This document shows, one piece after another, positions 5,478 through 63,883 of a DNA stretch of 64,000 nucleotides. Both the position numbers and the translations under genes were made by a program. The notes under the pieces are model-generated. The model had not been told where the DNA came from, ran no database searches, and saw only the letters and a program-made list of their open reading frames with translations. The stretch comes from Eubacteriales bacterium (GTDB taxonomy: Bacteria; Bacillota; Clostridia; Oscillospirales; CAG-272): assembly GCA_045659245.1 (NCBI GenBank), contig JAZOWN010000015.1, positions 4,618 to 68,617 of the forward strand. The letters run 5' to 3'. How positions within the stretch are numbered: position 1 is the stretch's first letter; each line of letters opens with the position of its first letter.

Positions 5478-6683
5478 TCAGAAATGCAAGCCCTCGAGTG
5501 TGTCACCGCAAAGAAAACGCTTTGCGGCAAGATATTCCTCCATAGCGCGTCTCGCTTCGGGAGAGTCGGGCTTGAATCCGCGCTTGCGTACAGCACGGAG
5601 CATAACGTTCTTAGGTGTTTCATCGGGATCTATAAGCTCAAGCGCCGCCGTCGAGTAGCCATGCGCTTCAAGTCTTTTAAGACGCAGTGCATCTGTTGCG
5701 GCATCGCAAAGCTTCTGGCGAAGCATGGAATAGTCCGTTATAAAGGAAAGAGAGGGGCTTGAAATTACCTTGTTCATCTCGTGGTGACAGCAGGGAGTTG
5801 ACAAAATAACGTCCGCTTGCCATTCAGCTGCCTTTTCAAGCACGATGTCCGTGGCAATATCACATGCATGCAGGGAGATTACGAGCGAGGGCGGTATGTC
5901 TGTCTTGTACGCGCGTATGTCTCCAGAGACGAATTCAAGTCCGTCAAAGCCAAGGTCGCGCGCAGTGCGGGAGCAATGCTCGATAACGTCACTCTTGAGA
6001 TCAATTCCCGTCATGCTAACCTTGTATCCCTTTATATTAGCAAAATAATGATATACCGCAAATGAAAGATAGCTCTTACCGCAGCAGAGGTCGCATATGC
6101 GAAGCTCGTCCTTGGGAAGCTTGTCCTCAACGTCGCGCACAAGCTCAAGGAAACGGTTGATTTGTCTAAACTTTGATTGCTTTTTATCGTATATGCGCCC
6201 ATTTTTGTCGGACACACCGAGATACGTAAGAAAGGGCTCGCTTCCGTCGAGAATATACCTTTTCTCTCTGTTGTTATGTACAGAAGCAGGCACTATCTGC
6301 GCACTCAAATCAAGCTTTCTTTTAAGCTTATCGCTGCCGATGAGCGTGCATTTTCCACTTTTTGAGGTGCGAAGCTCGCAGTCGCCGAGAGCGGTGAGCA
6401 GATTTATCTGTCCAAAGCCCAACGCGACCTGGAGAATGTCAGACGCGGCATTCTCACCGAGAACAATATTCTTGTGTGTTGCCTTGTTGTCCGTATGGAA
6501 AAATTCTATCTGCAAACAAGCAGAGCCGCCGACGGAGATCGGCGACGCTGCTGCTTTTATTATTGATCTGTCCTCGGACTTTGAAAAAACTGCCTTTCTG
6601 AGAGCCCCCTTGCTTGCCGAGTGTACAATGAGCTCGCAAAGCTCAAGATACGTGCCCTCGTAAGAAGTGCTTATATTACTCAT
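5478..6683 (-). CDS. Class I SAM-dependent methyltransferase domain protein
   Basis: The central motif ICDLCCGKSYLS matches a motif I-like SAM-binding loop, followed by the acidic loop GIDLK. The 4-nt overlap with plsY indicates an operon. Confidence 0.6.
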   Translation of the reverse strand: MSNISTSYEGTYLELCELIVHSASKGALRKAVFSKSEDRSIIKAAASPISVGGSACLQIEFFHTDNKATHKNIVLGENAASDILQVALGFGQINLLTALGDCELRTSKSGKCTLIGSDKLKRKLDLSAQIVPASVHNNREKRYILDGSEPFLTYLGVSDKNGRIYDKKQSKFRQINRFLELVRDVEDKLPKDELRICDLCCGKSYLSFAVYHYFANIKGYKVSMTGIDLKSDVIEHCSRTARDLGFDGLEFVSGDIRAYKTDIPPSLVISLHACDIATDIVLEKAAEWQADVILSTPCCHHEMNKVISSPSLSFITDYSMLRQKLCDAATDALRLKRLEAHGYSTAALELIDPDETPKNVMLRAVRKRGFKPDSPEARRAMEEYLAAKRFLCGDTLEGLHF

Positions 6684-7480
6684 TTGTCCGCGCCTTCTTG
6701 CTCGCCGGCATTGTTATCAGCCTTGATAACGTCCTCAGCCTTAACGCTCTTCTTAAATACGAATTTGCTTTCCTTGCCCTCGCGCAGACGCTTTATGTTT
6801 TCCTTGTGCTTGTAGATTACGAGCACCGCGATAAGAAGCGCGAATATAACATAGGGGCTTCCCGATACGGGCTCGGAGTCACCAAGCTGTATTGCGGGCA
6901 AGAGCCAGGAATCAACACCGGCAAGTATAAAGGGATACATAAGCATGCACATGACCGCGCCGAGAGATATGTATCTCGTAAAGCCAACGATCAAGGCATA
7001 AAGCGATGCAACTATGAGAAATACAAATGAGTTGCACATACACATTGTAACGGCTGACGTAACGACGCCCTTACCGCCCTTGAACCTGTAATAGATAGGG
7101 TACATATGTCCGATAACGGATGCGGTACCTGCAATATAAGCGCCAAGGTTTCCGAGAAGCGCGTAACCGATAAGGCACGCAACTATTGCTTTCATAGTAT
7201 CCCCGAGGAAGGTAAGTCCGGCAGCCTTACGTCCGTAGGTACGCATCATGTTGGTCATGCCTGCGTTTTTGCTTCCGAAATTACGAATATCCTGCTTGTA
7301 GGTCCTGCCTGAAATGATTATCGCAAAGTTAAGGCTTCCGAGCAAATAAGATGCCACGGCGGCAACTACGCAGCTTGCGACGAAAAGCGTCATCGCAAGG
7401 GCACCGTTATTTTCAAACAGAAGATTTTTGTTGATATAGTGCAGCACGAAGCCACTGTCAAAAAAGTCAGCAATTGTCAT
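6680..7480 (-). CDS. plsY: Glycerol-3-phosphate acyltransferase PlsY (acyl-phosphate dependent)
   Basis: Motifs GSLNFAIIISG, GSKNAGMTN and HMYPIYYRFKGGKGV are typical PlsY. The start is uncertain, with an alternative ATG at 7393. A charged C-terminal tail is present. Confidence 0.85.
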   Translation of the reverse strand: MTIADFFDSGFVLHYINKNLLFENNGALAMTLFVASCVVAAVASYLLGSLNFAIIISGRTYKQDIRNFGSKNAGMTNMMRTYGRKAAGLTFLGDTMKAIVACLIGYALLGNLGAYIAGTASVIGHMYPIYYRFKGGKGVVTSAVTMCMCNSFVFLIVASLYALIVGFTRYISLGAVMCMLMYPFILAGVDSWLLPAIQLGDSEPVSGSPYVIFALLIAVLVIYKHKENIKRLREGKESKFVFKKSVKAEDVIKADNNAGEQEGADK

Positions 7481-49487: not shown

Positions 49488-49735
49488 ATCGGGTACGTTA
49501 CCCGTTGTTATGCGGTGATGAGCCGCAAGCTGCTTTCGTGAGTGCGCCACGACCATAATTTTGCGAGCGATAGAACTTACACGGAGAAAGCCGAGCTGCA
49601 CTCGGTGGGGGCAATGACAAATGACGGGGAATAATGATACTTCTGTAGCCTTTATTGGGAGCAGCCTGCGGAGATAACGGGGGAGGTGCGAGCCCTATGG
49701 ATCCGAATAGCAATCGGACGCTTGATGATTTTTAC
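49488..49735 (+). ncRNA. Candidate structured leader or small RNA upstream of the island regulatory genes
   Basis: A GC-rich block within AT-rich DNA. It has no ORF with an RBS and several complementary segments, including ccgcaagctgc (49523-49533) with gcagcctgcgg (49661-49671). The class was not recognised. Confidence 0.3.
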
Positions 49736-49760: not shown

Positions 49761-50129
49761 ATGGAACTTAAAAGATTTTGTGAATACATAAACGTTTTAA
49801 AGTCATATAAGCAGATACAGGAAAGATTGCCATCGTATCCGAAGATTATTGATGCCAAATATGATGAATTACTTGAATACGGCAAAAAAATATTTGCGGA
49901 TCATGATGACAATATTCAGCGTTGGCTTGACGGAAGAACGTGTATATGTGTAAATCCCAATACGCGTCGCATTATAGAATATAAAATTGGAAATGATTGC
50001 GAGGCATTATATTATTTTCTGATGCTCTGTAAAAAAATTAACCATCGAAAGAGTGTGAGTGATGAATATAAGGAATACCTTGCATTTTTAATTACAAGAA
50101 GTAATTGCCCGAATTGGGAGGAATGCTGA
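49761..50129 (+). CDS. Hypothetical protein (122 aa), first gene of the island regulatory pair
   Basis: AAAGGAG RBS. The stop is 1 nt before the next start. No recognisable motif. Confidence 0.4.
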   Translation: MELKRFCEYINVLKSYKQIQERLPSYPKIIDAKYDELLEYGKKIFADHDDNIQRWLDGRTCICVNPNTRRIIEYKIGNDCEALYYFLMLCKKINHRKSVSDEYKEYLAFLITRSNCPNWEEC

Positions 50130-50130
50130 A

Positions 50131-50739
50131 ATGCGTGTACAACAAAAAATCGAGACAGAGGTCAATCCGCAGGCTATACTATCAATGTTGGTAGAGCGAG
50201 GTATAGTTGGAGATAAGACTATCAAGGATGTAAAGCAACGTGGAGCTGAGCAACAGCAAAACAGGATAGCCTATCATAATACTAAACTCTTGCTCAAACA
50301 CTACCGTACAATAGCATGGATGCTTGAATGCTTTCCCGATGCGATAGCCAACGAGCTTGAACTTCCGTTTGAACACATAGACGATATTATAGATCATCTG
50401 GATATAGAATTGGCTTACGGTAATAAAAAATTAGAGGAAAAATTGGCAAGTGTTCAAAAAACAAGACAACTTGTAGATAGGGTAAATGATGCGCTTACCG
50501 TTCTTAAAAAGAAGCCGGGAGACGGGGAAAGACTTTACGAGCTTGTATATCTTTCATATATTGCTCCTGAAGAAATGACTCATAATGAGCTATTGTTTCG
50601 CTTAAATATATCCTCAAGACAGTATTACCGTATGCGCGAGCAGGCACTTAGTATACTTTCACTTCGCTTGTGGTCGGCACTTAGCAAGGAATCTGAACTG
50701 TGGTTTGAAATACTTACATTTTTAGATGAGCTTTCATAA
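50131..50739 (+). CDS. Sigma-70 region-4-like / ArpU-RinA-like transcriptional activator
   Basis: The C-terminal ERLYELVYLSYIAPEEMTHNELLFRLNISSRQYYRMREQALSILSLRLW has the pattern of a region-4 HTH, as in mobile-element late-gene activators. Confidence 0.5.
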   Translation: MRVQQKIETEVNPQAILSMLVERGIVGDKTIKDVKQRGAEQQQNRIAYHNTKLLLKHYRTIAWMLECFPDAIANELELPFEHIDDIIDHLDIELAYGNKKLEEKLASVQKTRQLVDRVNDALTVLKKKPGDGERLYELVYLSYIAPEEMTHNELLFRLNISSRQYYRMREQALSILSLRLWSALSKESELWFEILTFLDELS

Positions 50740-50925: not shown

Positions 50926-51288
50926 GTGAAGAAGCAAAGAACAAAGGAAAAGAAATTGAGAAACGCCTATTGGACGGTCGTTGCTGTTTTGTCTGCGCTT
51001 ATTATATCTGTTCAGCCTATTATGGCAGCCCAAGAAAATATATGGGATAGATTCAGTACCATAATGCAGGATTTTTACGGACAGATACTTGCTATAAGTA
51101 CAATAGTAGCAGTTACTATGGCGGCAGTAGCCCTTGTTATCAGAATGGTATCAAGAAATCAAAAGGCTGTCGATGAAGCAACTGCATGGCTAAAGCGTAT
51201 CGTCATAACGTGGATAATTCTCAATTCACTCGGTCTTATTGTCGCATATTTGCAACCGCTTATAACAGGCGGCAATTATACCGGATAA
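50926..51288 (+). CDS. Secreted two-TM hairpin protein with VirB2/TrbC-like topology
   Basis: GTG start after an AGAGGAGA RBS. A signal peptide ends at IMAA/QE, followed by two hydrophobic helices joined by a basic loop (RMVSRNQK...KR). Confidence 0.4.
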   Translation: MKKQRTKEKKLRNAYWTVVAVLSALIISVQPIMAAQENIWDRFSTIMQDFYGQILAISTIVAVTMAAVALVIRMVSRNQKAVDEATAWLKRIVITWIILNSLGLIVAYLQPLITGGNYTG

Positions 51289-51362
51289 CAGCGAATATTG
51301 AAGGGTGGTGGTGATATACATGAATCGTTGTAATTCAAAATTTAATACGTTATCATAAAAAG

Positions 51363-51396
51363 CGGCTCGATAATAAAAATCGAACCGTTTTTCTTT
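51363..51396 (+). terminator. Terminator-like hairpin (possible attenuator) between the VirB2-like gene and the pilin genes
   Basis: Stem cggctcgat/atcgaaccg (8 of 9 paired) followed by tttttctttt. Confidence 0.5.
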
Positions 51397-51481
51397 TCGG
51401 CAAGACCGAAACAACAAAGAGTGGCAGGACCACATAAAAATCAAAAACAAAACATTTTAAATTTAAAGGAGAAATAAAATT

Positions 51482-51715
51482 ATGAGAAAATTCATCAATA
51501 ACATCAAGACAAAGGCAACCAAGACCTACATTTCCGCAAAGACCGCGCTTGCAGCAAAAAAGGGTGAAGGCTATATCGACACCGCCCTCAAGATCATCAT
51601 TTCTGTCGTAATCGGCGGTGTAATCCTCGCGGCGCTCTACACGCTGTTCAATTCCACCGTTATGCCCACACTCAGCCAGAAGATCTCCGGATTCTTCAAC
51701 TACACGGGCAACTGA
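51482..51715 (+). CDS. Flp-size pilin, copy 1 (non-canonical class III signal)
   Basis: 77 aa: a 28-aa basic leader ending KKG, then EGYIDTALKIIISVVIGGVILAALYTLF, giving a ~49-aa mature protein. Strong AAAGGAG RBS. Confidence 0.6.
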   Translation: MRKFINNIKTKATKTYISAKTALAAKKGEGYIDTALKIIISVVIGGVILAALYTLFNSTVMPTLSQKISGFFNYTGN

Positions 51716-51736
51716 TAAAAGGGGAGGTACGAAAAC

Positions 51737-51970
51737 ATGAGAAAGTTCATTAACAGCGTAAAGAACAAGGCAACCAAGGCGTACATTGCAGGTAAGACTG
51801 CACTTGCGGCTAAGAAGGGCGAGGGATATATCGATACCGCACTGAAAATCATTATCGGCGTAGTTATCGGCGGCGTAATTCTCGCTGCTCTCTATACTCT
51901 CTTTGACTCCACCATCATGCCTACTCTTGAGACCAAGATCAACGGCTTCTTCTCGTATTCCGGTACGTAA
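51737..51970 (+). CDS. Flp-size pilin, copy 2 (tandem paralogue)
   Basis: 62 of 77 residues are identical to copy 1 by manual alignment. It has the same KKG-EGYIDTAL junction. Confidence 0.6.
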   Translation: MRKFINSVKNKATKAYIAGKTALAAKKGEGYIDTALKIIIGVVIGGVILAALYTLFDSTIMPTLETKINGFFSYSGT

Positions 51971-51986
51971 GAAAGTGTGAGCAGAT

Positions 51987-52514
51987 ATGAAGAATATCAT
52001 CACAAACAAACGCGGAGAGGCGTATATCAAGACAGCCCTCATAATCATCATTTCAATCGTAATCGGCGGACTGCTGCTTGGCGGACTGTATCTGCTTTTT
52101 GCAGGAGAGAACGGCGTTATGAAGCAGACGGACGATAAGGTTTACGATATGTTCAACACCGGTGGAGAGATGACTCTCAAGCACGAGGGAACACAGCTCA
52201 TGTATTCCTATGACGGAGATACGTGGAAGAGCGTCAAAGTAACAGGTATGGACGATACAGGTAGGATCACCAATTACTTCACACTTGGCGAGGGCGAGTC
52301 GCTCGTTCATATCGTTTCATACACGCATAGTGCAGGAACTCGTGTCTGTTGCAGTGTGGACGGAAAGGAATGGGTAACATGTGTGGGTGGTTCCTCAATC
52401 ACTTTGCGAACCAACGACTCTAAAACCACCGTTTACGCAAACTGCTCTGACGGAAGATCTTATTATACTACCGACGGCATTGATTGGGTAATGGTCTCAA
52501 CCAAATACTATTAA
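51987..52514 (+). CDS. Pilin-like protein with a C-terminal globular domain
   Basis: N-terminal NKRG-EAYIKTALIIIISIVIGGLLLGG. The C-terminal ~125 aa carry three DGxxW motifs (YDGDTW, VDGKEW, TDGIDW). Confidence 0.55.
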   Translation: MKNIITNKRGEAYIKTALIIIISIVIGGLLLGGLYLLFAGENGVMKQTDDKVYDMFNTGGEMTLKHEGTQLMYSYDGDTWKSVKVTGMDDTGRITNYFTLGEGESLVHIVSYTHSAGTRVCCSVDGKEWVTCVGGSSITLRTNDSKTTVYANCSDGRSYYTTDGIDWVMVSTKYY

Positions 52515-52524
52515 ACGAGGTACT

Positions 52525-53136
52525 ATGATGCCAATAACATACGGAAATATATTTCTCAGAGTTTTCGGTATGTTTTTGTTTGGCGGAGTAGCAATTCTTA
52601 TAGGTGCGATCCTTGATAGAGTAATGAAATCCAAGGGGTACGTAACAAGTACCCCCATTACCCTTATGATAACGGCAGCCGTATCGCTGATACTTTACGG
52701 TCGGTTCGGGTTGTCGGTAACAGCAATACAGGGCGTATTTCTTATGCTCGTATTGCTGTACGCATCCTGCTCCGACCTTACGGATCATACCGTGGACGAT
52801 TACGTGTGGGTGACAGTGTTAGCCTTAGCTCTTATAAATGTGCGAACGGTAGGACTTACTTCAATGCTCATAGGAGCATTTTTTGTGTTTATACCGCAGT
52901 TGCTTATGGCTCTGCTGCCACCTCATAAAACTCTCGGAGGAGCGGACATAAAGCTCTCAACAGCCCTTGCGTTCCTGCTTGGCTGGCAGAGAGGACTTGC
53001 GGCGTATATCATAGGTCTGTTCCTTGCCATCACAGTTATGTGTATCGTAAATAAGATACGTAAAAATAAAGAAAGCAAAGCCTTTGCCCTTGTACCGTTT
53101 CTGTCGATAGCGGCAATGGCAATGTTTATGATCTAA
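52525..53136 (+). CDS. A24-family prepilin peptidase (TadV/CpaA-like, no methyltransferase domain)
   Basis: Polytopic ORF with two Asp motifs: SCSDLTDH and GGADIKL (the GxGDxK type). Confidence 0.75.
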   Translation: MMPITYGNIFLRVFGMFLFGGVAILIGAILDRVMKSKGYVTSTPITLMITAAVSLILYGRFGLSVTAIQGVFLMLVLLYASCSDLTDHTVDDYVWVTVLALALINVRTVGLTSMLIGAFFVFIPQLLMALLPPHKTLGGADIKLSTALAFLLGWQRGLAAYIIGLFLAITVMCIVNKIRKNKESKAFALVPFLSIAAMAMFMI

Positions 53137-53151: not shown

Positions 53152-53943
53152 ATGAATTTCAATTTTCACAAAAGAGATACCCCCGAAAATAACGAATGGG
53201 GAAAAACAGCCGCCAAAAAGAACAAGACGGGAAAGAGTATATTTGCCTCACGTTCCTTTATAGGAATAGTTTGTATCGTACTTGCCCTTATCGTCTGCTT
53301 TGGAGCTGCTCCCGTTATCAACCGTATTTCCGATGAAAAGACGGAGGTAGTCAGAATGAGGAATACGGTGCTTAAAGGTACACAGCTCACCGAGAACGAT
53401 ATTGAGGTAATTTCGGTAGGCTCATTCAATCTTTACGAGGACGTAATTACAGACAAGTCAGAGGTCATAGGTAAATACGTCACGGGAGATATGTATAAGG
53501 GAGAATATATCTTCAAGGAGCATATCACCTCGGACGTCAATACTGCAAACGACATTCTTGGCAGTCTTAACGGAGAGAAGAAAGCTATAAGTGTTACAAT
53601 AGGTTCTTTTGCACTTGGACTTTCAGGTAAGCTTGAAACGGGAGATATTATATCCGTCATAGTATTCGATTCCAAGGACGGTTATGCCCATACACCGCCT
53701 GAGCTTCGGTACGTAAGAGTTATTACATCAACGACCTCGCAGGGTATAGATAAGGCAGACAGAACGGATAATACGCAGCCTGTGACCGTTACCGTCCTTG
53801 TCAATAAGACTCAGGCTGAGCTTCTTGCCGAGTATGAAAAGACGTCGTCAATGCACTTTACTCTGGAATACCGTGGGGAAATAGAAACGGCGCAGCATTA
53901 CCTTGATATACAAGAGGAATATTTTAAGACACAGGAGGGATAA
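53152..53943 (+). CDS. CpaB/RcpC-like pilus assembly protein (TM plus SAF-like domain)
   Basis: N-terminal TM, then VVRMRNTVLKGTQLTENDIEVISVG (SAF-like), and a position matching Tad loci. Confidence 0.55.
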   Translation: MNFNFHKRDTPENNEWGKTAAKKNKTGKSIFASRSFIGIVCIVLALIVCFGAAPVINRISDEKTEVVRMRNTVLKGTQLTENDIEVISVGSFNLYEDVITDKSEVIGKYVTGDMYKGEYIFKEHITSDVNTANDILGSLNGEKKAISVTIGSFALGLSGKLETGDIISVIVFDSKDGYAHTPPELRYVRVITSTTSQGIDKADRTDNTQPVTVTVLVNKTQAELLAEYEKTSSMHFTLEYRGEIETAQHYLDIQEEYFKTQEG

Positions 53944-53945
53944 GT

Positions 53946-54707
53946 ATGTCAGATTACAAAGACAAAATAATCACCGTGTGGGGAAGTCCCCATTCGGGAA
54001 AGACTACGTTTTCCTTAAAGCTCGGACAGGCTCTGTATGAAAAAACAAGAGCCTCGGTAGTCGTTCTGTTCTGTGACGTAACAACTCCCACGATCCCCGT
54101 ACTGTTTCCCAATTTTAAAACAGCGGAGCTTTGTTCCGTTGGTACTGTACTTTCAAAACCGGATATTTATGCCAATGACGTGGTATCCAATCTTATTACC
54201 GTTAAGGAAAGAGGAAATCTCGGATTCCTCGGTTATAAGAATAAGGAGAACAGGTTCAGCTTTCCCGAATATGACGAGGGCAAGGTGCATGAGCTTTTCA
54301 CGGCTATCTCCGAAATAGCGGACTATATCATCGTCGATTGCGAGAGCGTTCCCACAAGCAGCGTGCTTACGGAGTTTTCTCTGAAGAACGCAGAAATAAT
54401 GATAAAGCTCTGTACTCCCGATCTGTCCTGTATCGGCTTTTATCAGTCACAGCACTCTCTTATGCTGACGGGCAAATACTATCCGGATAAGATACTTACC
54501 ATTATGAACGTACCCTCAGCAGACCTTACTATGCTCGCATCGGATGCGGCTATGCACGTGGGTAACGTGGATATTATCGTTCCATACAGCGAAAGTGTGA
54601 GAGATCAATATCTTGAGGGAAGGCTCTATGGGCGGTCTTATGACAGAAAATTTTCACAAGCCGTAGGCAAGGCAGTAGAGGCGGTGAGAAAAGATGGAGC
54701 TGTATGA
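53946..54707 (+). CDS. TadZ/CpaE-like P-loop NTPase
   Basis: Walker A-like WGSPHSGKTT and Walker B-like IIVDCE. It sits directly upstream of the CpaF-like ATPase. Confidence 0.5.
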   Translation: MSDYKDKIITVWGSPHSGKTTFSLKLGQALYEKTRASVVVLFCDVTTPTIPVLFPNFKTAELCSVGTVLSKPDIYANDVVSNLITVKERGNLGFLGYKNKENRFSFPEYDEGKVHELFTAISEIADYIIVDCESVPTSSVLTEFSLKNAEIMIKLCTPDLSCIGFYQSQHSLMLTGKYYPDKILTIMNVPSADLTMLASDAAMHVGNVDIIVPYSESVRDQYLEGRLYGRSYDRKFSQAVGKAVEAVRKDGAV

Positions 54708-55995
54708 CCTCTTAAATCAAACACAGAGGTATATTTCCGAGCATTATTCCGCAGCACTTATAGATAAGAGTAAAGGAACAGAGCTTAAAGCATATATCGG
54801 GAAGTACCTTTACGATACAAGATATACCGTCCCCGGATATGATAGAAATAGCCTTATAGAGAGGCTCTATTGCGAGATGGCGGAGTATTCCATACTGACA
54901 AAGTATTTGAAAAATCCTGACGTTGAGGAAATAAATATCAACGGCTGGGACGACGTGGCGATCACGCATCTCGATGGGCATATTGAAAAATTAAAGGAGT
55001 ATTTCTTCAATCCCGGTCACGCGGTTGACGTTGTAAAGAAGCTCTTACAGCATTCGGGTATGATAATCGACAACGCAACGCCCATGGCTCAAGGACATCT
55101 TCCTAACAATACCCGTATAACAGCTCTCAAGGAGCCAATAGTTGACTCGGACAGAGGTATAGCTGTATCAATAAGAATGCTTCACCCGGCAAGAGTGGAC
55201 AGAGCAATGCTTCTTCGCTCGGAGTCTATCTCCGAGGAGATGTTGTGCTTTCTTGAGACCTGTTTGAGATACGGTGTTTCCTTTGTGGTGGCAGGACGAA
55301 CAAGCTCGGGTAAGACCACATTGCTTAATTCCTTGCTTAGCTCAATACCTGACGGCAAGCGTATCTATACGATTGAAAGCGGAGCGAGAGAGTTATCCCT
55401 CATTAAAAGGGATGAATACGGAAGAGTAGTGAACAACGTAGTTCATACGCTCTCCCGTCATTCGGATAATCCTATACACGTTATTAGCCAAGAGGATTTG
55501 GTTATGGCGGCGCTTCGTTTCGATCCTGACGTTATATGCGTTGGTGAGATGCGAGATAAGGAAGCCCACTCGGCAGTAGAGGCAAGCAGTACCGACCACA
55601 CCGTTGTGACAACTGTTCACGGTGGCGGCGGTAAGTATGCACACCGCCGTATAGCGTTCCTGTCACAAAGACGCTTCCCCATAGATATGCGAATATCCTT
55701 GCAACAAGCGGCGCTTGCATTTCCTATAGTAGTGTTTGCACATAAGCTTGAGGATAACAGACGAAAGGTAATGGATATTACCGAGTGTATCGTACACGAC
55801 GACGGAGAGCTTGAGTACAGAACGCTATACAGATACGCCATACACAGCAACGAATACAAGGACGGAGTGTTTTCCATAAACGGTGAGTTTATAAAGGAGA
55901 ACGCCATATCCGACAACCTGCGTCAGAAGCTTATGCGTGGCGGAGTTCCCGAGAAGCTTTTGCGAAAATTTGAGAAAGGAGCTAAGACACAATGA
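54694..55995 (+). CDS. CpaF/TadA-type secretion ATPase (VirB11-related superfamily)
   Basis: Walker A AGRTSSGKTTLLN, Asp/Walker B VICVGEMRD, and His box TTVHGG. Confidence 0.85.
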   Translation: MELYDLLNQTQRYISEHYSAALIDKSKGTELKAYIGKYLYDTRYTVPGYDRNSLIERLYCEMAEYSILTKYLKNPDVEEININGWDDVAITHLDGHIEKLKEYFFNPGHAVDVVKKLLQHSGMIIDNATPMAQGHLPNNTRITALKEPIVDSDRGIAVSIRMLHPARVDRAMLLRSESISEEMLCFLETCLRYGVSFVVAGRTSSGKTTLLNSLLSSIPDGKRIYTIESGARELSLIKRDEYGRVVNNVVHTLSRHSDNPIHVISQEDLVMAALRFDPDVICVGEMRDKEAHSAVEASSTDHTVVTTVHGGGGKYAHRRIAFLSQRRFPIDMRISLQQAALAFPIVVFAHKLEDNRRKVMDITECIVHDDGELEYRTLYRYAIHSNEYKDGVFSINGEFIKENAISDNLRQKLMRGGVPEKLLRKFEKGAKTQ

Positions 55996-56918
55996 CCTTT
56001 ATTTATATTTTGTGTTTTATACTTATTGCGGTAGGTATCATATTCGCTTTGGGGCTTACACCCGAAGGATTGACACACGACATCTCGCCGCTTTTCAATA
56101 AAAAGCGGACTCTCAGAGAAAAGTCACTTACGGCAAGGGGTAAGAAAAAGACACGGAGAATGGTGCTTGAGATATACCGCATAAAGACGGCTCTTGAGGA
56201 GACGGGGAAGGATAAACAGTTTTCCGTCGCCTACGCCGCATCGGTTGTTTTGCTTATCGTAGGCTGTATGGTAGCCATAATCATAGACAATCTATTTCTC
56301 ATACCCGTATTCGCTCTGACCTTTGCTATGATACCGTTCGTGTATCTTAAAAGCACTATCAATCTATATGAAAAGCACGTAAAGGAGGACTTGGAAACGG
56401 CGCTGTCTATTATTACGACCTCTTACGTTCGTAACGACAATATCATAGTAGCGGTCAGTGAGAACATACGCTACCTAAAGCCGCCTATAAAGGGGATATT
56501 CGAGAGCTTCCTTGCGGAGACATCAACCATTACTCCCGACGTAAAGGCAGCTATACTTCATCTGAAAGAGAAGATAAATGACAGTATATTTGAGGAATGG
56601 TGTGACGTGCTGCTGTCCTGCCAGAATGACAGAACGCTGAAGGATACGCTTATGCCTGTTGTATCCAAGCTGACGGACGTAAGACTTGTAAATAACAGTC
56701 TTAAAACGATGCTGGATAACGCAAAAAAAGAGTATTACACGATGGTGGTAATGGTGCTTGCAAACATACCCATTCTGTATATCATCAATAAGGATTGGTA
56801 TGACGCGCTTATGCACACAACGCTTGGTAAGGCTGTCCTTGCTATCTGCGCTCTTGTTATCTTTATAACGTCTATGAGGCTTGGTAAGATAACCAAGCCT
56901 GTAGAGTATAAGAGATAG
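55992..56918 (+). CDS. TadB-like platform protein (GspF/T2SSF family)
   Basis: 308 aa with an N-terminal TM, a cytoplasmic helical domain and C-terminal TMs. It overlaps the ATPase gene by 4 nt. Confidence 0.6.
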   Translation: MTFIYILCFILIAVGIIFALGLTPEGLTHDISPLFNKKRTLREKSLTARGKKKTRRMVLEIYRIKTALEETGKDKQFSVAYAASVVLLIVGCMVAIIIDNLFLIPVFALTFAMIPFVYLKSTINLYEKHVKEDLETALSIITTSYVRNDNIIVAVSENIRYLKPPIKGIFESFLAETSTITPDVKAAILHLKEKINDSIFEEWCDVLLSCQNDRTLKDTLMPVVSKLTDVRLVNNSLKTMLDNAKKEYYTMVVMVLANIPILYIINKDWYDALMHTTLGKAVLAICALVIFITSMRLGKITKPVEYKR

Positions 56919-56929
56919 GGGGGAGCAAT

Positions 56930-57805
56930 ATGGTAATAATAGCACAGATCATCGTAGGACTTCTTGTTGGTGTCGGTATAGGTATTATACTTATAGACAG
57001 GTTAAAGCTCCCGTCTATAAGAGCTGTGACTGCTCTTGGCAATCTCGGGAAAAAGGGAGATAAGAAGATAAGCGCATTGGAGATATATCTCGGTGATTTT
57101 TCAGCCTTTATTTCCAAGCGTATAAAGCTCAACGAATACAAGAGAGCCCAGCTTGAAGCGGATCTGCGGACGGCAAGTATGGAGATAACCCCCGAAAGGT
57201 ACGTATCTGACGCACTCGTTAAAGCTCTTATTTTAGGCGTGTTCGCAATACCCGCATTCTTTGTATTCAAGATAGCGGCTGTTGTGGTTATACTTATAGC
57301 CGTACTCATTTATTTCAAGGAATACACGGCGGTAAGCAATAGGATAAGAGAGAGACGAAAGAGAATAGAATACGAGCTTCCGAGGTTCGTAGGCTCTATT
57401 GAGAAAACTATGCAGCACAGCCGTGACGTTATCCATATACTCGAATCCTATAAGGAGATAGCGGGTGAGGATATGAAAAGGGAGATAGACATTACCGTTG
57501 CGGATATGAAGTCCGGTAACATTGTGGTTGCCCTGACACGTCTTGAAACAAGAGTAGGATCTACTATGATGAGCGACGTAACGAGAGGTCTTATCGCTCT
57601 TAACAGAGGAGACGATAACCATATCTATTGGGGACAGCTCGTTCTGAAGTTCGCGGACTACCAGCGACAGCTTCTCCGTCAGCAGGCGGATAAAGTACCG
57701 AGAAAGGTGAAAAGACTTTCTATGGCTCTTATGTTCTGCTTTATGCTCATCTATGTGGTTGTTATAGGGCAGGTGCTTGTAACCTCGCTTGGCTCTATTT
57801 TGTGA
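56930..57805 (+). CDS. TadC-like platform protein (GspF/T2SSF family)
   Basis: 291 aa with the same architecture as the preceding gene. Confidence 0.6.
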   Translation: MVIIAQIIVGLLVGVGIGIILIDRLKLPSIRAVTALGNLGKKGDKKISALEIYLGDFSAFISKRIKLNEYKRAQLEADLRTASMEITPERYVSDALVKALILGVFAIPAFFVFKIAAVVVILIAVLIYFKEYTAVSNRIRERRKRIEYELPRFVGSIEKTMQHSRDVIHILESYKEIAGEDMKREIDITVADMKSGNIVVALTRLETRVGSTMMSDVTRGLIALNRGDDNHIYWGQLVLKFADYQRQLLRQQADKVPRKVKRLSMALMFCFMLIYVVVIGQVLVTSLGSIL

Positions 57806-57813
57806 GGTGAGCT

Positions 57814-58221
57814 ATGAGAAGAATACGAAACAGAAAAGGCGAGGGATACGTTGACGTAGCTGTTGCGATACTCGTTATATCTTTTTTGCTCATACTCCTT
57901 GTCAGCGTTTTCGGAATAATACATCAAAAGCAGACACTAAACCAGATGGCAGAGCAGATCGTCGAGGTAGCGGCAATAAACGGCTGTGTTGACGGTGAAG
58001 CTATGGAACGCTTTGAGGTTTTGTGTGAGCAGATGGGAGTAACCCCACAGATTTCCTTTGACGTGGAATACTATGACGAGGACAGCGGTAAGGTTCAGCT
58101 TGGGGATATTATCTCTTGTACGCTTACTATGGATACCTCACTCATAGGCTTTGGCGGTGAGCTGTTTCCCATAGAGCTTACAGTCACCGCAAACGGCGTG
58201 TCGCAGGTATATTGGAGGTAG
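57814..58221 (+). CDS. TadE-like pseudopilin
   Basis: N-terminal NRKG-EGYVDVAVAILVISFLLILLVSVF, followed by a ~100-aa domain. Confidence 0.55.
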   Translation: MRRIRNRKGEGYVDVAVAILVISFLLILLVSVFGIIHQKQTLNQMAEQIVEVAAINGCVDGEAMERFEVLCEQMGVTPQISFDVEYYDEDSGKVQLGDIISCTLTMDTSLIGFGGELFPIELTVTANGVSQVYWR

Positions 58222-58224
58222 GCT

Positions 58225-58668
58225 ATGAGGATACTCAAGGATAAGCGGGGCATGAGCTACGTGCTTGTGTGTGTCGTGGTACTCATAGCCTCAATGCTCA
58301 TATACGTGGGCTTGGAGTATAATTCAGCTGTATTTGCAGTGAAGATGCAAAAGCAGGATGTATCCGTGAAGTTGGACAATGTGATAGCGGATACGCTGAG
58401 GGAGAGCATAGAGAACAGCACGCCAATAAGCGATAAGCAATTAGAGCAACGGGCATACGAGGCTCTTGGCTTTGAAAACATAAATACACAGATAAGGGAC
58501 GGTGACGGGCATTCTATGTCAAGACCGTCCTTTTTTATTATAATGGGAACGGATATATCTATAACGGCAGAGTATGAGCTGACTGTACCTTTCAGGCTTC
58601 TTGATGCCGAAGTGATAGATATTACCGTTCCCGTAAGAGTAACAGCAAAATATTACGAAAGGAATTGA
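58225..58668 (+). CDS. Pseudopilin-like protein
   Basis: N-terminal DKRG-MSYVLVCVVVLIASMLIYVG, followed by a ~115-aa domain. Confidence 0.45.
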   Translation: MRILKDKRGMSYVLVCVVVLIASMLIYVGLEYNSAVFAVKMQKQDVSVKLDNVIADTLRESIENSTPISDKQLEQRAYEALGFENINTQIRDGDGHSMSRPSFFIIMGTDISITAEYELTVPFRLLDAEVIDITVPVRVTAKYYERN

Positions 58669-59594: not shown

Positions 59595-61652
59595 TTGTTT
59601 GATTGGATATTTGAAGGCATAGCCACGTGGATAGCAAAGGTTTCTACCGAACTGCTTGACGTAGTATCCGGTTTGTTCTTATCTGCACTCGGTACGGATA
59701 TGACGGCTATGGAAGAATATTTCCCATTCATTTCGACTGCTTTTACAGTTATGCAATATACGGCGTGGGCGCTGTTGTTTATTATTACCGTTTGGCAACT
59801 GTTCAAAGCCTTTGGCGGACCTCTGACGGATGCGGAAGAGCCGTGGGGACTAATTATGAAAAGCTCTCTGTTCGCATTTCTTATATACTTCGCAAAGCCT
59901 ATATTCCTTTACGTTCTGAATATTGCACGGGCGCCATATACGGCGCTTATGGAAATCGAGATGGCAAATGAGGATTTCACCTTTGCCGGTATTGGGGAAA
60001 TAATAGGAAATGGGATTGTGGATATCGCATCAACGTTAAGCGTGGTAGGTGTTATACTCCAAACTATACTGCTTATAACGCTTGGTTGGAACTATTTTAA
60101 GCTGTTGCTTGAGATAGTTGAAAGATATGTGGTAGTAGGAATCCTTTGCTATACGTCACCGCTTGCCTATTCAATGGGAGCATCAAGATCCACCTCGCAG
60201 GTGTTCAAATCGTGGTGCCGTATGATAGGCTCACAACTGTTGTTGCTTGTTATGAACGTGTGGTTTTTAAGAGCTTTTAATAGCTCGGTAGGACAGTTCA
60301 TGGTGAATGGTGGAGGGCTTAGCAACGGTAAAGGTAATCTCTTTTTATGGTTGTTCTGTGCCATAGCATTTTTGAAAATTGCTCAAAAGTTCGATTCTCA
60401 CCTTTCGGCAATAGGTTTGAATGTGGCACAAACTGGAACGGGCCTTGGAATGGAAATACTTATGGCTGCCAAGAGTGTTGTAAGCCTTGGCAAGTGCGTT
60501 ACAGGCTCAGGTAGGGTATTCAAGGGAACTATGGGAGCCAAATTCGGCGGATTTACCGACAGATACAGAGCTAATTCATTTGTAAGAGATTCTGTTGTTC
60601 AAGGCGGAACGAGAATGGGAGCCGGTGGATCTGTTGGATTTATCGGTCGTATGTTCGGTGGTGTAGCAGCAAGGAACGGAGCTGTCCTTTCGGGATGTTC
60701 CATATCTTCTGTTGCAAGTAGAACACCTGATGTGTCGGGAAAGATAGCAGGAGATATTGCAGACAGAAGCCTTGCAAACTATATGCCGCAGATGCAGGGA
60801 AAGACACTTAGCGGAACACAGATAACAGGCGGTCATATTTCTACCGTAGTAACTACTGCCGACGGAAAAACAGCCACCGTGGGACTTTACAATACCGAAC
60901 AGTTTGATAAGCCCACAGGAGCGCACTCAATAGTAACGGCTTCTGACGGAACGAAATGGTATCAGGTAGCAAGCGGCGCAGGTGCTGGGGAGCTTTACAA
61001 TACTCCGCAGTTTACAGGCTCTATATATGAAGCATCTCAGGTATCCGAGTTCTTCCCAAGTGCCGCAGAAGGAACTATACTGCGCACTATAGGCGCGGGA
61101 GAGATAGCGGCGTCCACACCCGATGGAGAGAGCGTTTGGTATCACAGCGCATATTATAGTGAGCCTGACGCACCCCACGATACGGTGCAGTCCTATGACG
61201 GCTCGGATTGGTATGCAATGAAGCCTCACGCGCAAACGCCTAGTTTTGAAGACGGTGAAGAAGCGTCAGAGTACAACCGAGCAAGGTTCAGAGAATTTAT
61301 GCCGGGATACGAGGAAAACGTTACGGTAGTGGATGCGGAGGACGGACAAATCGAGCTTCGTCACGAGGATGGTTCGGGTACAAAACTTTACGATGCAACT
61401 CAATACGACACACCGAGAGGAGAGTATGCGATATATGAGGACAGAAACGGTGACACTTGGTACGGTATTCACGGAGAAGCTGCCGTAGAGAAACGTCCCG
61501 TATATGAAAATGGAGAGCCGGTTTATGACGGAGAACGATTACGTACCGTAAACGAGCCTACCGTTAGATACAGAAATATTCCAAACCACTATGAAGCTCC
61601 CCAAGCACATGAAATAAAAGAGCAAAGACCGCCAAGCCGAAGAAAGACGTAA
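59595..61652 (+). CDS. Polytopic membrane protein, VirB6/TrbL-like N-terminal half, repeat-containing soluble C-terminal half
   Basis: TTG start after AGAGGTGA. It has ~6-7 TMs in the first ~330 aa, with an N-terminus (MFDWIFEGIATWIAK...) like Firmicute TrbL-family proteins. The C-terminal half has four xGxxWY motifs. Confidence 0.5.
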   Translation: MFDWIFEGIATWIAKVSTELLDVVSGLFLSALGTDMTAMEEYFPFISTAFTVMQYTAWALLFIITVWQLFKAFGGPLTDAEEPWGLIMKSSLFAFLIYFAKPIFLYVLNIARAPYTALMEIEMANEDFTFAGIGEIIGNGIVDIASTLSVVGVILQTILLITLGWNYFKLLLEIVERYVVVGILCYTSPLAYSMGASRSTSQVFKSWCRMIGSQLLLLVMNVWFLRAFNSSVGQFMVNGGGLSNGKGNLFLWLFCAIAFLKIAQKFDSHLSAIGLNVAQTGTGLGMEILMAAKSVVSLGKCVTGSGRVFKGTMGAKFGGFTDRYRANSFVRDSVVQGGTRMGAGGSVGFIGRMFGGVAARNGAVLSGCSISSVASRTPDVSGKIAGDIADRSLANYMPQMQGKTLSGTQITGGHISTVVTTADGKTATVGLYNTEQFDKPTGAHSIVTASDGTKWYQVASGAGAGELYNTPQFTGSIYEASQVSEFFPSAAEGTILRTIGAGEIAASTPDGESVWYHSAYYSEPDAPHDTVQSYDGSDWYAMKPHAQTPSFEDGEEASEYNRARFREFMPGYEENVTVVDAEDGQIELRHEDGSGTKLYDATQYDTPRGEYAIYEDRNGDTWYGIHGEAAVEKRPVYENGEPVYDGERLRTVNEPTVRYRNIPNHYEAPQAHEIKEQRPPSRRKT

Positions 61653-62629: not shown

Positions 62630-63883
62630 CTAAAAATTCAAACAGTCGGGATTAAGAAGAAAGTCAAATAAACTTAAAAGATAAATTCCAGCCTCGTTAT
62701 AATGAGAACGTGAAATATCTTTTACGATAATGATTTTCTTAAAAGAGTCGTTTATATGAATAAGAGAGTTTTGCTCCTGTTCTAATTTTTCTTTCGTTGG
62801 AATAGATAAAGCAGTCTGTATATAGTAGCGTTTATCGGATAAATTACAAACGAAATCTACTTCTGATTGCTTTAAAACGCTCTTTTCGCCATTTTGTGAT
62901 GAATAATATTCCACGATGCCTACGTCTACGTTAAAACCACGAATTCGTAATTCATTATAAATGATATTTTCCATAGTGTGAGTTTCTTCGGATTGACGGA
63001 AATTTAATCGTGCATTTCTTAATCCAATGTCGGTAAAATAATATTTTGACGGAGTGTTAATATATTTTCTGCCCTTGATATTGTAGCGTTTTGATTGCTC
63101 AATTAAAAAGGAATCTACAAAGTAATCAAGATAGTTTTTTATAGTGTCAGGGTGCAGTGAAACTTGTTTTTCTGTTTTAAAGGTATTAGATAGCTTTTTG
63201 GGATTGGTCAGTGAGCCAATGCAAGACGAAAGGACGTCAAGCAATTCTTCAAGCTCATAATCACCGCGGACGTTATTTCTTTCACGGATATCTTTTATAT
63301 AAGTTTCAGTAAAGATGTCCTTCAGATAGTTGGATTTGTCTTCTTCAGTTGTAAATTCAAATATTTTAGGTAATCCGCCAAAGTTGATATATTGTGCCCA
63401 TGCTTCTTCTTTTGTTCCTTTAAAGGCTGACATAAACTCAGAAAAAGAAAGTGGTGCGACGTGAATTTGATCTCCGCGTCCTCGAAATTCGGTTATAATA
63501 TCCTTCGATAAAAACTTTGCGTTGCTTCCGGTGACATAGGTGTCTGCATTCTTTATGTGAAGAAAACTATTAAGAACGTCTTCAAATTCAGGGACCAATT
63601 GTACCTCATCAAGAAGTATATAGTACATTTCCTGATCCTTAACGTAGTTATGAACGTAATCACACAAATAATCAGGATCTCTGAATTTCTTGTTTTTTCT
63701 ATCGTCCAATGCGATTTTTAAAATATGATCTTCTTTAATTCCAACGGATAAAAGGTGTTTGTGAAAGAGTTCAAACAAGAGATACGATTTTCCGCACCTA
63801 CGGATACCGGTGATTACTTTTATCATGCCGTTGTGCTTGTGTCGTATAAGTTTATCTAAATACAGATCACGTTTAATTTCCAT
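62630..63883 (-). CDS. AAA-family ATPase with a DUF4143-type C-terminal domain
   Basis: Walker A GIRRCGKSYLL, Walker B ILLDEVQ, and a typical ~400-aa architecture. AT-rich. Confidence 0.8.
   Translation of the reverse strand: MEIKRDLYLDKLIRHKHNGMIKVITGIRRCGKSYLLFELFHKHLLSVGIKEDHILKIALDDRKNKKFRDPDYLCDYVHNYVKDQEMYYILLDEVQLVPEFEDVLNSFLHIKNADTYVTGSNAKFLSKDIITEFRGRGDQIHVAPLSFSEFMSAFKGTKEEAWAQYINFGGLPKIFEFTTEEDKSNYLKDIFTETYIKDIRERNNVRGDYELEELLDVLSSCIGSLTNPKKLSNTFKTEKQVSLHPDTIKNYLDYFVDSFLIEQSKRYNIKGRKYINTPSKYYFTDIGLRNARLNFRQSEETHTMENIIYNELRIRGFNVDVGIVEYYSSQNGEKSVLKQSEVDFVCNLSDKRYYIQTALSIPTKEKLEQEQNSLIHINDSFKKIIIVKDISRSHYNEAGIYLLSLFDFLLNPDCLNF

Follow-up and report, generated by a model that had tools for sequence, protein, structure and literature searches.

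A divergent Tad-like gene module of gut Clostridia with predicted 49-residue DUF6133 pilins and a proposed variant class III signal

Introduction

The minimal machinery of type IVc pili in monoderm bacteria (Pelicic, PMC6916266) has the same gene content as the module analysed in this study. [quoted passage not shown] Such prepilin-less loci were found in C. kluyveri, C. cellulolyticum, C. bolteae, C. sp. L2-50 and D. hafniense (PMC3244431). The rule applied by the PilFind program (PMC3244431) asks for Gly, Ala or Ser, followed by four uncharged residues, Asp or Glu, and a further 14 uncharged residues.

Type IV filaments are also known from conjugation. The IncI and PAPI-1 pili have been proposed to mediate the contact between donor and recipient (PMC12857230; PMC9045228), and a review of type IV secretion systems (T4SS) from December 2025 describes type IV pili in conjugation only for these Gram-negative systems (PMC12857230). 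The literature on Tad pili in Gram-positive conjugative elements yielded nothing specific, and the preprint on the 'Hodor' megaplasmid does not mention pili. To our knowledge, Gram-positive conjugation is currently thought to use surface adhesins and to be pilus-free.

Here, a Tad-like module is described from a 64,000-nucleotide stretch of an Eubacteriales genome (the window), in which two small tandem genes precede a gene for a putative prepilin peptidase.

Results

Gene content of the module

Left of approximately 48.7 kb, the window harbors chromosomal housekeeping genes. From 49.6 kb onwards, a pemK RNA motif, a sigma-like regulator, a T4SS-pilin-like ORF (50926) and the Tad-like module are found in this order. 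The module is followed by a gene for a VirB6-like membrane protein (59595) and by another element gene. The features of this region are as follows:

50926..51288, + strand: T4SS-pilin-like (VirB2-like) small membrane protein; weak match to the Mbov_0395 conjugal transfer family (E 0.003)
51482..51715, + strand: pilA1, predicted 77-aa DUF6133 prepilin; PF19629 E 4e-24, 84.9 bits
51737..51970, + strand: pilA2, predicted 77-aa DUF6133 prepilin, paralogue of pilA1; PF19629 E 1e-21, 76.8 bits
51987..52514, + strand: candidate minor or tip pilin of 175 aa; short leader KRG↓EAYIKT (the arrow marks the proposed cut), DUF6133-type N-terminal helix, C-terminal globular domain
52525..53136, + strand: putative A24 prepilin peptidase, TadV-like, 203 aa; Peptidase_A24 E 3e-10
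53152..53943, + strand: CpaB/RcpC-like pilus assembly protein; RcpC E 2e-10 (passes the Pfam threshold), SAF E 1e-5
53946..54707, + strand: P-loop (ParA/MinD-like) protein in the TadZ position; weak AAA_31/MinD matches only
54694..55995, + strand: TadA/CpaF-type extension ATPase; T2SSE E 4e-25
55992..56918, + strand: TadB-like platform protein; family against S. meliloti TadB, hhalign probability 90%, E 1.5e-6
56930..57805, + strand: TadC-like platform protein; against S. meliloti TadC, hhalign probability 68%, E 5e-5; weak UpsF match
57814..58221, + strand: DUF4320 protein, candidate minor pilin; PF14208 E 8e-33, 9-aa leader RKG↓EGYVD
58225..58668, + strand: second candidate minor pilin, no Pfam family; KRG↓MSYVL
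59595..61652, + strand: VirB6-like multi-pass membrane protein; weak matches to the Mbov_0396 and MMCAP2_0566 ICE transmembrane families

The putative peptidase consists of the Peptidase_A24 domain only and lacks DiS_P_DiS, the N-terminal domain of PilD-type enzymes. Across 55 homologues, its D84 and G138-G139-x-D141 do not vary, the motif being GGAD rather than GxGD. The CpaB-like protein additionally matched TIGR03177 (E 2e-15), a value below the curated cut-off of that model. The place of the TadZ-position protein is conserved in 57 of 78 related loci (see below). Among solved structures, C. crescentus CpaF is the best relative of the ATPase (6e-23), followed by the archaeal GspE2/FlaI (1e-20). 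No Pfam family, T2SSF included, matched either of the platform proteins (55992 and 56930). When aligned with each other by hhalign, the TadB-like and TadC-like families gave a probability of 63% (E 7e-5), indicating paralogues by remote homology only. The 175-aa protein matched PF19629 over residues 3-60 (E 3e-13) and had weak lectin-like matches below threshold; one to three genes for such long pilins are present per related locus.

The tandem genes pilA1 and pilA2

A good Shine-Dalgarno sequence is located upstream of each of the two 77-aa ORFs (51482 and 51737). Both proteins start with M-R-K-F-I-N and contain eight lysines or arginines within residues 1-27. The 28-aa basic leader ends with KKG and is followed by EGYIDTALKIII and a hydrophobic stretch, with EGYIDTALK directly behind KKG and ahead of the hydrophobic helix. 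Charged residues are present within the hydrophobic segment. An antisense ORF of 232 aa overlapping both genes (51353-52051) was dismissed as a mechanical ORF without support.

An earlier note on this DNA had reported two adjacent 77-aa ORFs with 62 of 77 identical residues. Both were found at exactly the coordinates given there, and the identity was confirmed by BLASTP, which aligned the proteins without gaps (62/76 identities); the last residue differs as well, resulting in 62/77. The clustering of the differences in leader and C-terminal tail, also claimed there, is borne out by their positions: six of the 15 are located in the leader (residues 7, 8, 10, 15, 18 and 19), eight in the tail (residues 57, 60, 65, 66, 69, 73, 75 and 77) and a single one in the core (residue 41). 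The suggestion that this pattern reflects surface variation can be retained for the C-terminal differences, but not for those in the leader, since the leader of a prepilin would be cleaved off and only C-terminal differences can mean variation at the surface.

The synonymous sites of the two genes are saturated (approximately 43 of 55 differ), while dN rises from 0.03 (core) to 0.11 (leader) and 0.36 (tail). Synonymous saturation together with a low dN in the core points to an old duplication with purifying selection on both copies. The genes pilA1 and pilA2 are therefore old, selectively maintained coding genes and neither chance ORFs nor recent duplicates. At the RNA level, low-depth contigs were seen in one bovine RNA library, and fragments of related genes were present in three metatranscriptomes; these are weak traces and no proof of expression.

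The family DUF6133

PilA1, PilA2 and the N-terminus of the 175-aa protein (50.0 bits) all exceed the curated gathering threshold of Pfam family DUF6133 (PF19629), which is 27 bits. Neither DUF6133 nor DUF4320 is assigned a function in Pfam, and RefSeq uses the names 'DUF6133 family protein' and 'DUF4320 family protein'. NCBIfam holds no model for proteins of either family, and a search of the accessible literature for the two names returned zero papers. Close homologues of the pilins (113 after clustering at 90%) are not named informatively either; the three that carry a name are all termed 'hypothetical protein'. The earlier note had considered that the motif might belong to a known annotated family with an unrelated function. 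The family is indeed catalogued, as DUF6133, yet it is function-less and thus not a known family with an unrelated role.

A profile search with DUF6133 retrieved 1055 representatives (50% clustering, E<=1e-3). Among species-representative genomes, 361 loci were confirmed, 78 of which were retained. These originate almost exclusively from gut or rumen Clostridia, e.g. Oscillospiraceae, Flavonifractor, Angelakisella, Vescimonas and CAG:841/CAG:180.

A junction shared by several protein families

The junction between basic leader and hydrophobic segment reads KKG-EGYIDT in PilA1 and PilA2. As the earlier note had stated and the translations confirm, it is repeated in three further ORFs, namely as KRG-EAYIKT (51987), RKG-EGYVDV (57814) and KRG-MSYVLV (58225). 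Counted from a cut after the glycine, Tyr is found at position +3 in five of five proteins and Asp at +5 in three of five. The window contains 238 six-frame ORFs of 60 aa or more, of which exactly these five matched the pattern [KR][GAS]xxY followed by a hydrophobic stretch.

For DUF6133, 150 diverse representatives were aligned to the family profile, and the positions were numbered from the proposed cut:

Position -1: G in 110, A in 26, S in 4 and T in 2
Position +1: E in 130
Position +2: G in 119 (Gly before Tyr/Phe in 119/148, 80%)
Position +3: Y in 121, F in 16
Position +4: V or I
Position +5: D in 139 and E in 2 of 149
Position +6: T in 119
Position +9: K in 134

The consensus junction across these approximately 150 relatives is [G/A/S]↓E-G-[Y/F]-[V/I]-D-T..K. 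Behind it, one Gly is invariant; a hydrophobic helix comes next, and P-T-L..K-I...F-x-Y-x-G is conserved at the C-terminus. The same junction was found across many genomes in the other three families: [KR][KRS][GA]↓EGY[IV]D in DUF4320 (with [GA]↓EGY[IV]D conserved in approximately 30 homologues), K[KR]G↓x-x-Y in the 58225-type family (conserved together with the subsequent hydrophobic helix in 17 homologues) and [KR]G↓E-[GA]-[YHSQ]-[IV]-x-T in the long pilins. The DUF6133 leaders are rich in Lys and Arg, and a small residue at -1, an acidic residue at +5 and a hydrophobic helix are present as in class III signals.

In class III signals, positions +1 and +9 are normally uncharged. The PilFind rule matched none of the five window proteins and three of the 150 relatives, and the Flp motif G-xxxxEY none of the five and one of the 150. 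It is Glu at +1 and Lys at +9 that make the locus proteins fail. The expectation that standard pilin predictors may miss these proteins was thus correct for both patterns. Likewise, a variant class III signal common to the locus proteins, as proposed in the earlier note, is supported by the family-wide junction, the adjoining gene for the A24 peptidase and the predicted single helix. With their spacing of i, i+4 and i+8, Glu +1, Asp +5 and Lys +9 would be located on one face of the helix, where they might form a salt-bridge network in the core of the filament.

Gene order in related loci

In phmmer searches of the 78 related loci with the window proteins as queries, the order pilin(s)-A24-CpaB-TadZ-TadA-TadB-TadC-DUF4320 was found again almost always where the contig is long enough. 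One to five tandem pilin genes are present per locus, and the gene for the A24 peptidase directly follows them in nearly every case. Two apparent exceptions were inspected: in L067, a divergent, unflagged A24-like ORF is located directly after the pilin gene, while L046 has CpaB-like and ATPase-sized ORFs without an adjacent A24-like ORF. An orphan cassette of two pilin genes (L079-L084) was considered as a simple deletion derivative of an L086-type locus, which was not supported by nucleotide comparison.

The VirB2-like and VirB6-like genes are neighbours in related loci, and the Tad module is found before or after them, always in the same direction; in the window, it is located between the two. 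In L097, MobC, relaxase, DUF3801 and T4CP genes are encoded upstream of the module and DUF8195, PrgI and VirB4-like genes downstream. On pTPHSE1, a 49-kb Terrisporobacter plasmid, the module is followed by genes for a VirD4-like protein, a pLS20_p028 family protein, a C40 peptidase and a MobP2 relaxase. The Angelakisella locus carries ArdA, LPD28, D12 methylase, DUF3849 and YodL upstream of the module, and the same module is present on plasmids of C. difficile. Recognisable T4SS genes were detected by pairwise search in a minority of the 10-kb flanks only.

Structure prediction and remote homology

An AlphaFold2 model of the pilin based on the family alignment (pLDDT 73.5) shows a helix from residue 2 to 25, a break at KKGEG and a second helix from residue 31 to 76. 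The model of the DUF4320 protein (pLDDT 83) contains a 49-residue helix (8-56), a short helix and a four-stranded sheet, a predicted topology resembling that of a pilin. Foldseek retrieved no pilin and no significant match with the DUF4320 model (best E 0.02, LptE), and generic helical hairpins but no pilins with the pilin model, a search that is uninformative for a single helix. Comparison of the pilin profile with all PDB chains resulted in chance matches only. Among the locus proteins, none matched Pfam Flp_Fap (PF04964) or TadE (PF07811) at E<=1. With hhalign, the DUF6133 alignment reached a probability of 2% against six annotated Flp pilins from proteobacterial plasmids, and DUF4320 a probability of 1% against TadE. 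Because the Flp-like role would come without similarity of sequence or profile, the proteins are referred to as Flp-analogous and not as detectable members of the Flp family.

Discussion

Proposed function of the module

From their sequences and gene context, it is highly probable that the two 77-aa ORFs encode pilins, and with the same strong expectation these are predicted to form filaments. PilA1 and PilA2, with their proposed variant class III signal, are likely to be Flp-analogous major pilins of a divergent Tad-type (type IVc) pilus. The prepilin would insert into the membrane via its hydrophobic helix and would be cut by the TadV-like A24 aspartic peptidase (52525-53136) directly behind the small residue next to the basic stretch. 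The mature subunit would be a single helix of 49 residues, in which positions +1, +3, +5 and +9 are Glu, Tyr, Asp and Lys. Polymerisation might be driven by the CpaF-like ATPase and the TadB/TadC-like platform, assisted by the CpaB-like and TadZ-position proteins, while the DUF4320, 58225 and 175-aa proteins would be processed by the same peptidase and serve as minor or tip pilins. Several results speak against this reading: neither Flp nor any solved structure is similar in sequence, Foldseek retrieved no pilins, the signal is charged at +1 and +9, the peptidase has GGAD in place of GxGD, a second cleavage register is possible, the RNA traces are weak, and T4SS genes were recognised in few of the 10-kb flanks.

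As the module is located inside a Gram-positive transfer region, contact between donor and recipient during conjugation appears to be the most likely role. By analogy with the IncI thin pilus, a function in conjugation is proposed tentatively. It is conceivable, if doubtful at present, that gut Clostridia possess a dedicated Tad-type mating pilus of 49-residue DUF6133 subunits, encoded inside the T4SS operon of their conjugative elements; to a similarly speculative degree, such a pilus might bring donor and recipient together and even share in DNA delivery. The pilus could also be real but mere cargo of the element, acting outside conjugation as a tight-adherence organelle (to mucus, plant fibre or cells) or in DNA uptake. 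Tad pili are classically adhesins and often horizontally transferred (PMC6668835), the type IVc (Tad) pili of M. luteus function in transformation (PMC6916266), the long pilin has its weak lectin-like matches, and many loci are without a T4SS gene within 10 kb in the pairwise search. However, the module runs in the same direction as the transfer genes and between them (T4CP on one side and PrgI/VirB4 on the other in L097), it splits the VirB2-like and VirB6-like genes of the window, which are neighbours elsewhere, and the transfer-gene setting is seen in several distant clades as well as on plasmids. A role as cargo is considered rather unlikely.

For the predicted pilins, cleavage after the small residue following the basic leader ([KR][KR][G/A/S]↓E-G-Y-[I/V]-D-T) is the register favored here with reasonable confidence. 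The same pilins and machinery might instead operate with a cut after the Gly directly before Tyr (E-G↓Y-I-D), which would leave a mature subunit starting with an aromatic residue and carrying the acid at +3. This is a real alternative, since Gly precedes Tyr/Phe in 119 of 148 DUF6133 members and the DUF4320 homologue of pCd5_2, a C. difficile plasmid, reads NNHG↓FWDLAL, its lone Gly aligning with the later site; moreover, classical type IV pilins begin with an aromatic or hydrophobic residue. Yet in approximately 12% of the DUF6133 members, the residue before the Tyr is N, M, L, F, T or R, and a joint analysis showed that these retain G, A or S two residues earlier, at -1 of the favored register. 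At least one long-pilin member has V in this place (EVF) and one 58225-type member I (EIY). Basic residues directly precede the first small residue (-2/-3), and a cut after the latter puts the acid at +5, where all other type IV pilins have it. This register also turns the pilin of the C. difficile plasmid into S↓NGAIEF, in which +5 is Glu and +6 is Phe. The later cut is regarded as improbable.

That DUF6133 proteins are not filament subunits but uncleaved small bitopic membrane proteins (a T4SS accessory protein, an exclusion factor or a regulator) would agree with the lack of homology to any known pilin, the uninformative Foldseek search and the charges inside the hydrophobic segment, but is very improbable, considering that their genes are nearly always directly upstream of an A24 peptidase gene without another obvious substrate, share the N-terminal junction with the DUF4320, 58225-type and long-pilin families, occupy the major-pilin position in a machinery otherwise lacking one, and, as is to be expected of pilins, are present one to five times in tandem and vary in their C-terminal half.

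The assignment of PilA1 and PilA2 as predicted pilins proposes a function for two sizeable families of 'unknown function', DUF6133 (more than 1000 clusters at 50% identity) and DUF4320. To recognise such proteins, motif-based pilin finders would have to widen their rule and accept a charge at +1, an aromatic residue at +3, Asp at +5 and Lys at +9. Should the link to conjugation be true, Gram-positive gut bacteria would use pilus-assisted mating, which bears on the spread of genes in gut and rumen. Cultured carriers such as Angelakisella massiliensis, Flavonifractor porci and Vescimonas sanitatis are available for direct tests, as is the 49-kb plasmid pTPHSE1 of Terrisporobacter petrolearius.

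Comparison with known systems

The predicted pilins share with Flp pilins (A. actinomycetemcomitans Flp1, C. crescentus PilA and those of B. breve and M. luteus) the tiny prepilin with a long basic leader and a mature subunit of approximately one helix, which is a prediction in the present case. Both types of loci encode an A24 peptidase of the truncated TadV type (putative here), a CpaF-type ATPase and two platform paralogues; a CpaB-like protein and a candidate for TadZ, weakly matched and identified by position, are present in the window. Both have minor pilins that carry the signal of the major pilin (candidates here), and tandem paralogues are common. The junction differs, being [GAS]↓EG[YF][VI]DT instead of G↓xxxxEY: position +5 is Asp where Flp has Glu, the aromatic residue stands at +3 rather than +6, and Glu +1 and Lys +9 come in addition. 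The candidate minor pilins belong to DUF4320 and an unnamed family, in contrast to the TadE and TadF proteins of Tad systems.

A basic residue at -2 and G, A or S at -1 are also features of archaeal class III signals (substrates of PibD, FlaK and EppA). PibD tolerates charged residues at +1. The 52525 peptidase has a weak FlaK match, and the ATPase matches GspE2/FlaI and CpaF nearly equally. Nevertheless, the present system is bacterial and has the Tad gene order and CpaB, whereas archaeal pilins are larger and without EGYxD.

The Tad-like cluster of TANB77 (PMC11680825) is likewise divergent, belongs to uncultured gut Clostridia and encodes pilin-like proteins without sequence annotation. It differs by a fused TadBC and pilin-like proteins of 143-621 aa encoded downstream, and DUF6133 and an A24 peptidase are not reported for it (PMC11680825). 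Owing to this different architecture, it was rejected as the same system.

As in the thin pilus of IncI R64/TP114 and the PAPI-1 pilus, type IV filament genes are located within a conjugative element beside a T4SS. The latter pili are type IVb filaments of large pilins in diderm bacteria, while the system described here would be Tad-type, with predicted 49-residue subunits, and belongs to monoderm hosts.

The prepilin-less loci of Imam et al. also agree with the present ones: both groups are found in Clostridia, have a machinery distant from other tad loci and encode no protein passing the PilFind rule. The present class fits the description of these loci, which would explain their missing prepilins. 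We infer that the two groups are the same, in which case DUF6133, DUF4320 and related proteins would probably be the pilins missing from these loci.

Boundaries and gene order of the mobile element

A pemK RNA motif sits at the left-hand border of the mobile element that carries the Tad-like module, closely followed downstream by two open reading frames starting at 49761 and 50131, the latter sigma-like. Further out on the left, chromosomal genes for GAPDH and HtpG are located. The features flanking the module in the window are:

49631-49700, + strand, pemK RNA motif (RF02913; 55 bits, exceeding the gathering score)
50131-50739, small regulator, sigma-70 region-4-like or ArpU-like, upstream of the module
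50926-51288, VirB2-like small membrane protein, weak match to Mycoplasma ICE families
59595-61652, VirB6-like multi-pass protein, weak match to Mycoplasma ICE families
62630-63883, - strand, AAA_14/DUF4143 ATPase gene

The VirB2-like and VirB6-like genes adjoin each other in four related loci (L001, L016, L022 and L027); in the window, the 8-kb Tad-like module stands between them. A small regulator of the same description (sigma-70 region-4-like or ArpU-like) is encoded upstream of the module on plasmid pTPHSE1 (locus L096, 33661-34170), and both regulators possibly represent element-encoded control of the pilus/transfer operon. The oppositely oriented ATPase gene breaks the run of element genes at the point where one of VirB4 type would be anticipated; the remainder of the element lies outside the window. 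A second opposite-strand frame (51353-52051, - strand, 232 aa), antisense to and overlapping both pilin genes, was listed mechanically only and has no support as a gene.

Possible rearrangement or decay of the pilin locus

Two close relatives of the window locus are truncated. The cluster stops after TadB in one (L086), while genes for YqaJ and a large serine recombinase follow the pilin genes in the other (L088), replacing the peptidase and the machinery, which suggests frequent rearrangement or decay. A 531-bp stretch comprising only the two pilin genes (51455-51985) shares 96.8% identity with a stretch in six metagenome contigs (L079-L084), flanked there by a gene for ParB_N on one side and GH2/rhamnosidase genes on the other; these contigs carry no Tad genes. 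A remnant and a cassette transfer are candidate origins of this stretch.

Comparison with a Clostridioides difficile plasmid and canonical Flp pilins

In locus L100, from the C. difficile plasmid pCd5_2 (NZ_CP037841.1), positions 6450-6764 encode a "hypothetical protein" of 104 aa, which takes the place of the pilin within the same machinery. Although it carries no DUF6133 annotation, it has the C-terminal P-T-F..K-I...F motif in common. Its junction, DS/NGAIEF (slash, proposed peptidase cut), with E at +5 and F at +6, is nearer to that of canonical Flp.
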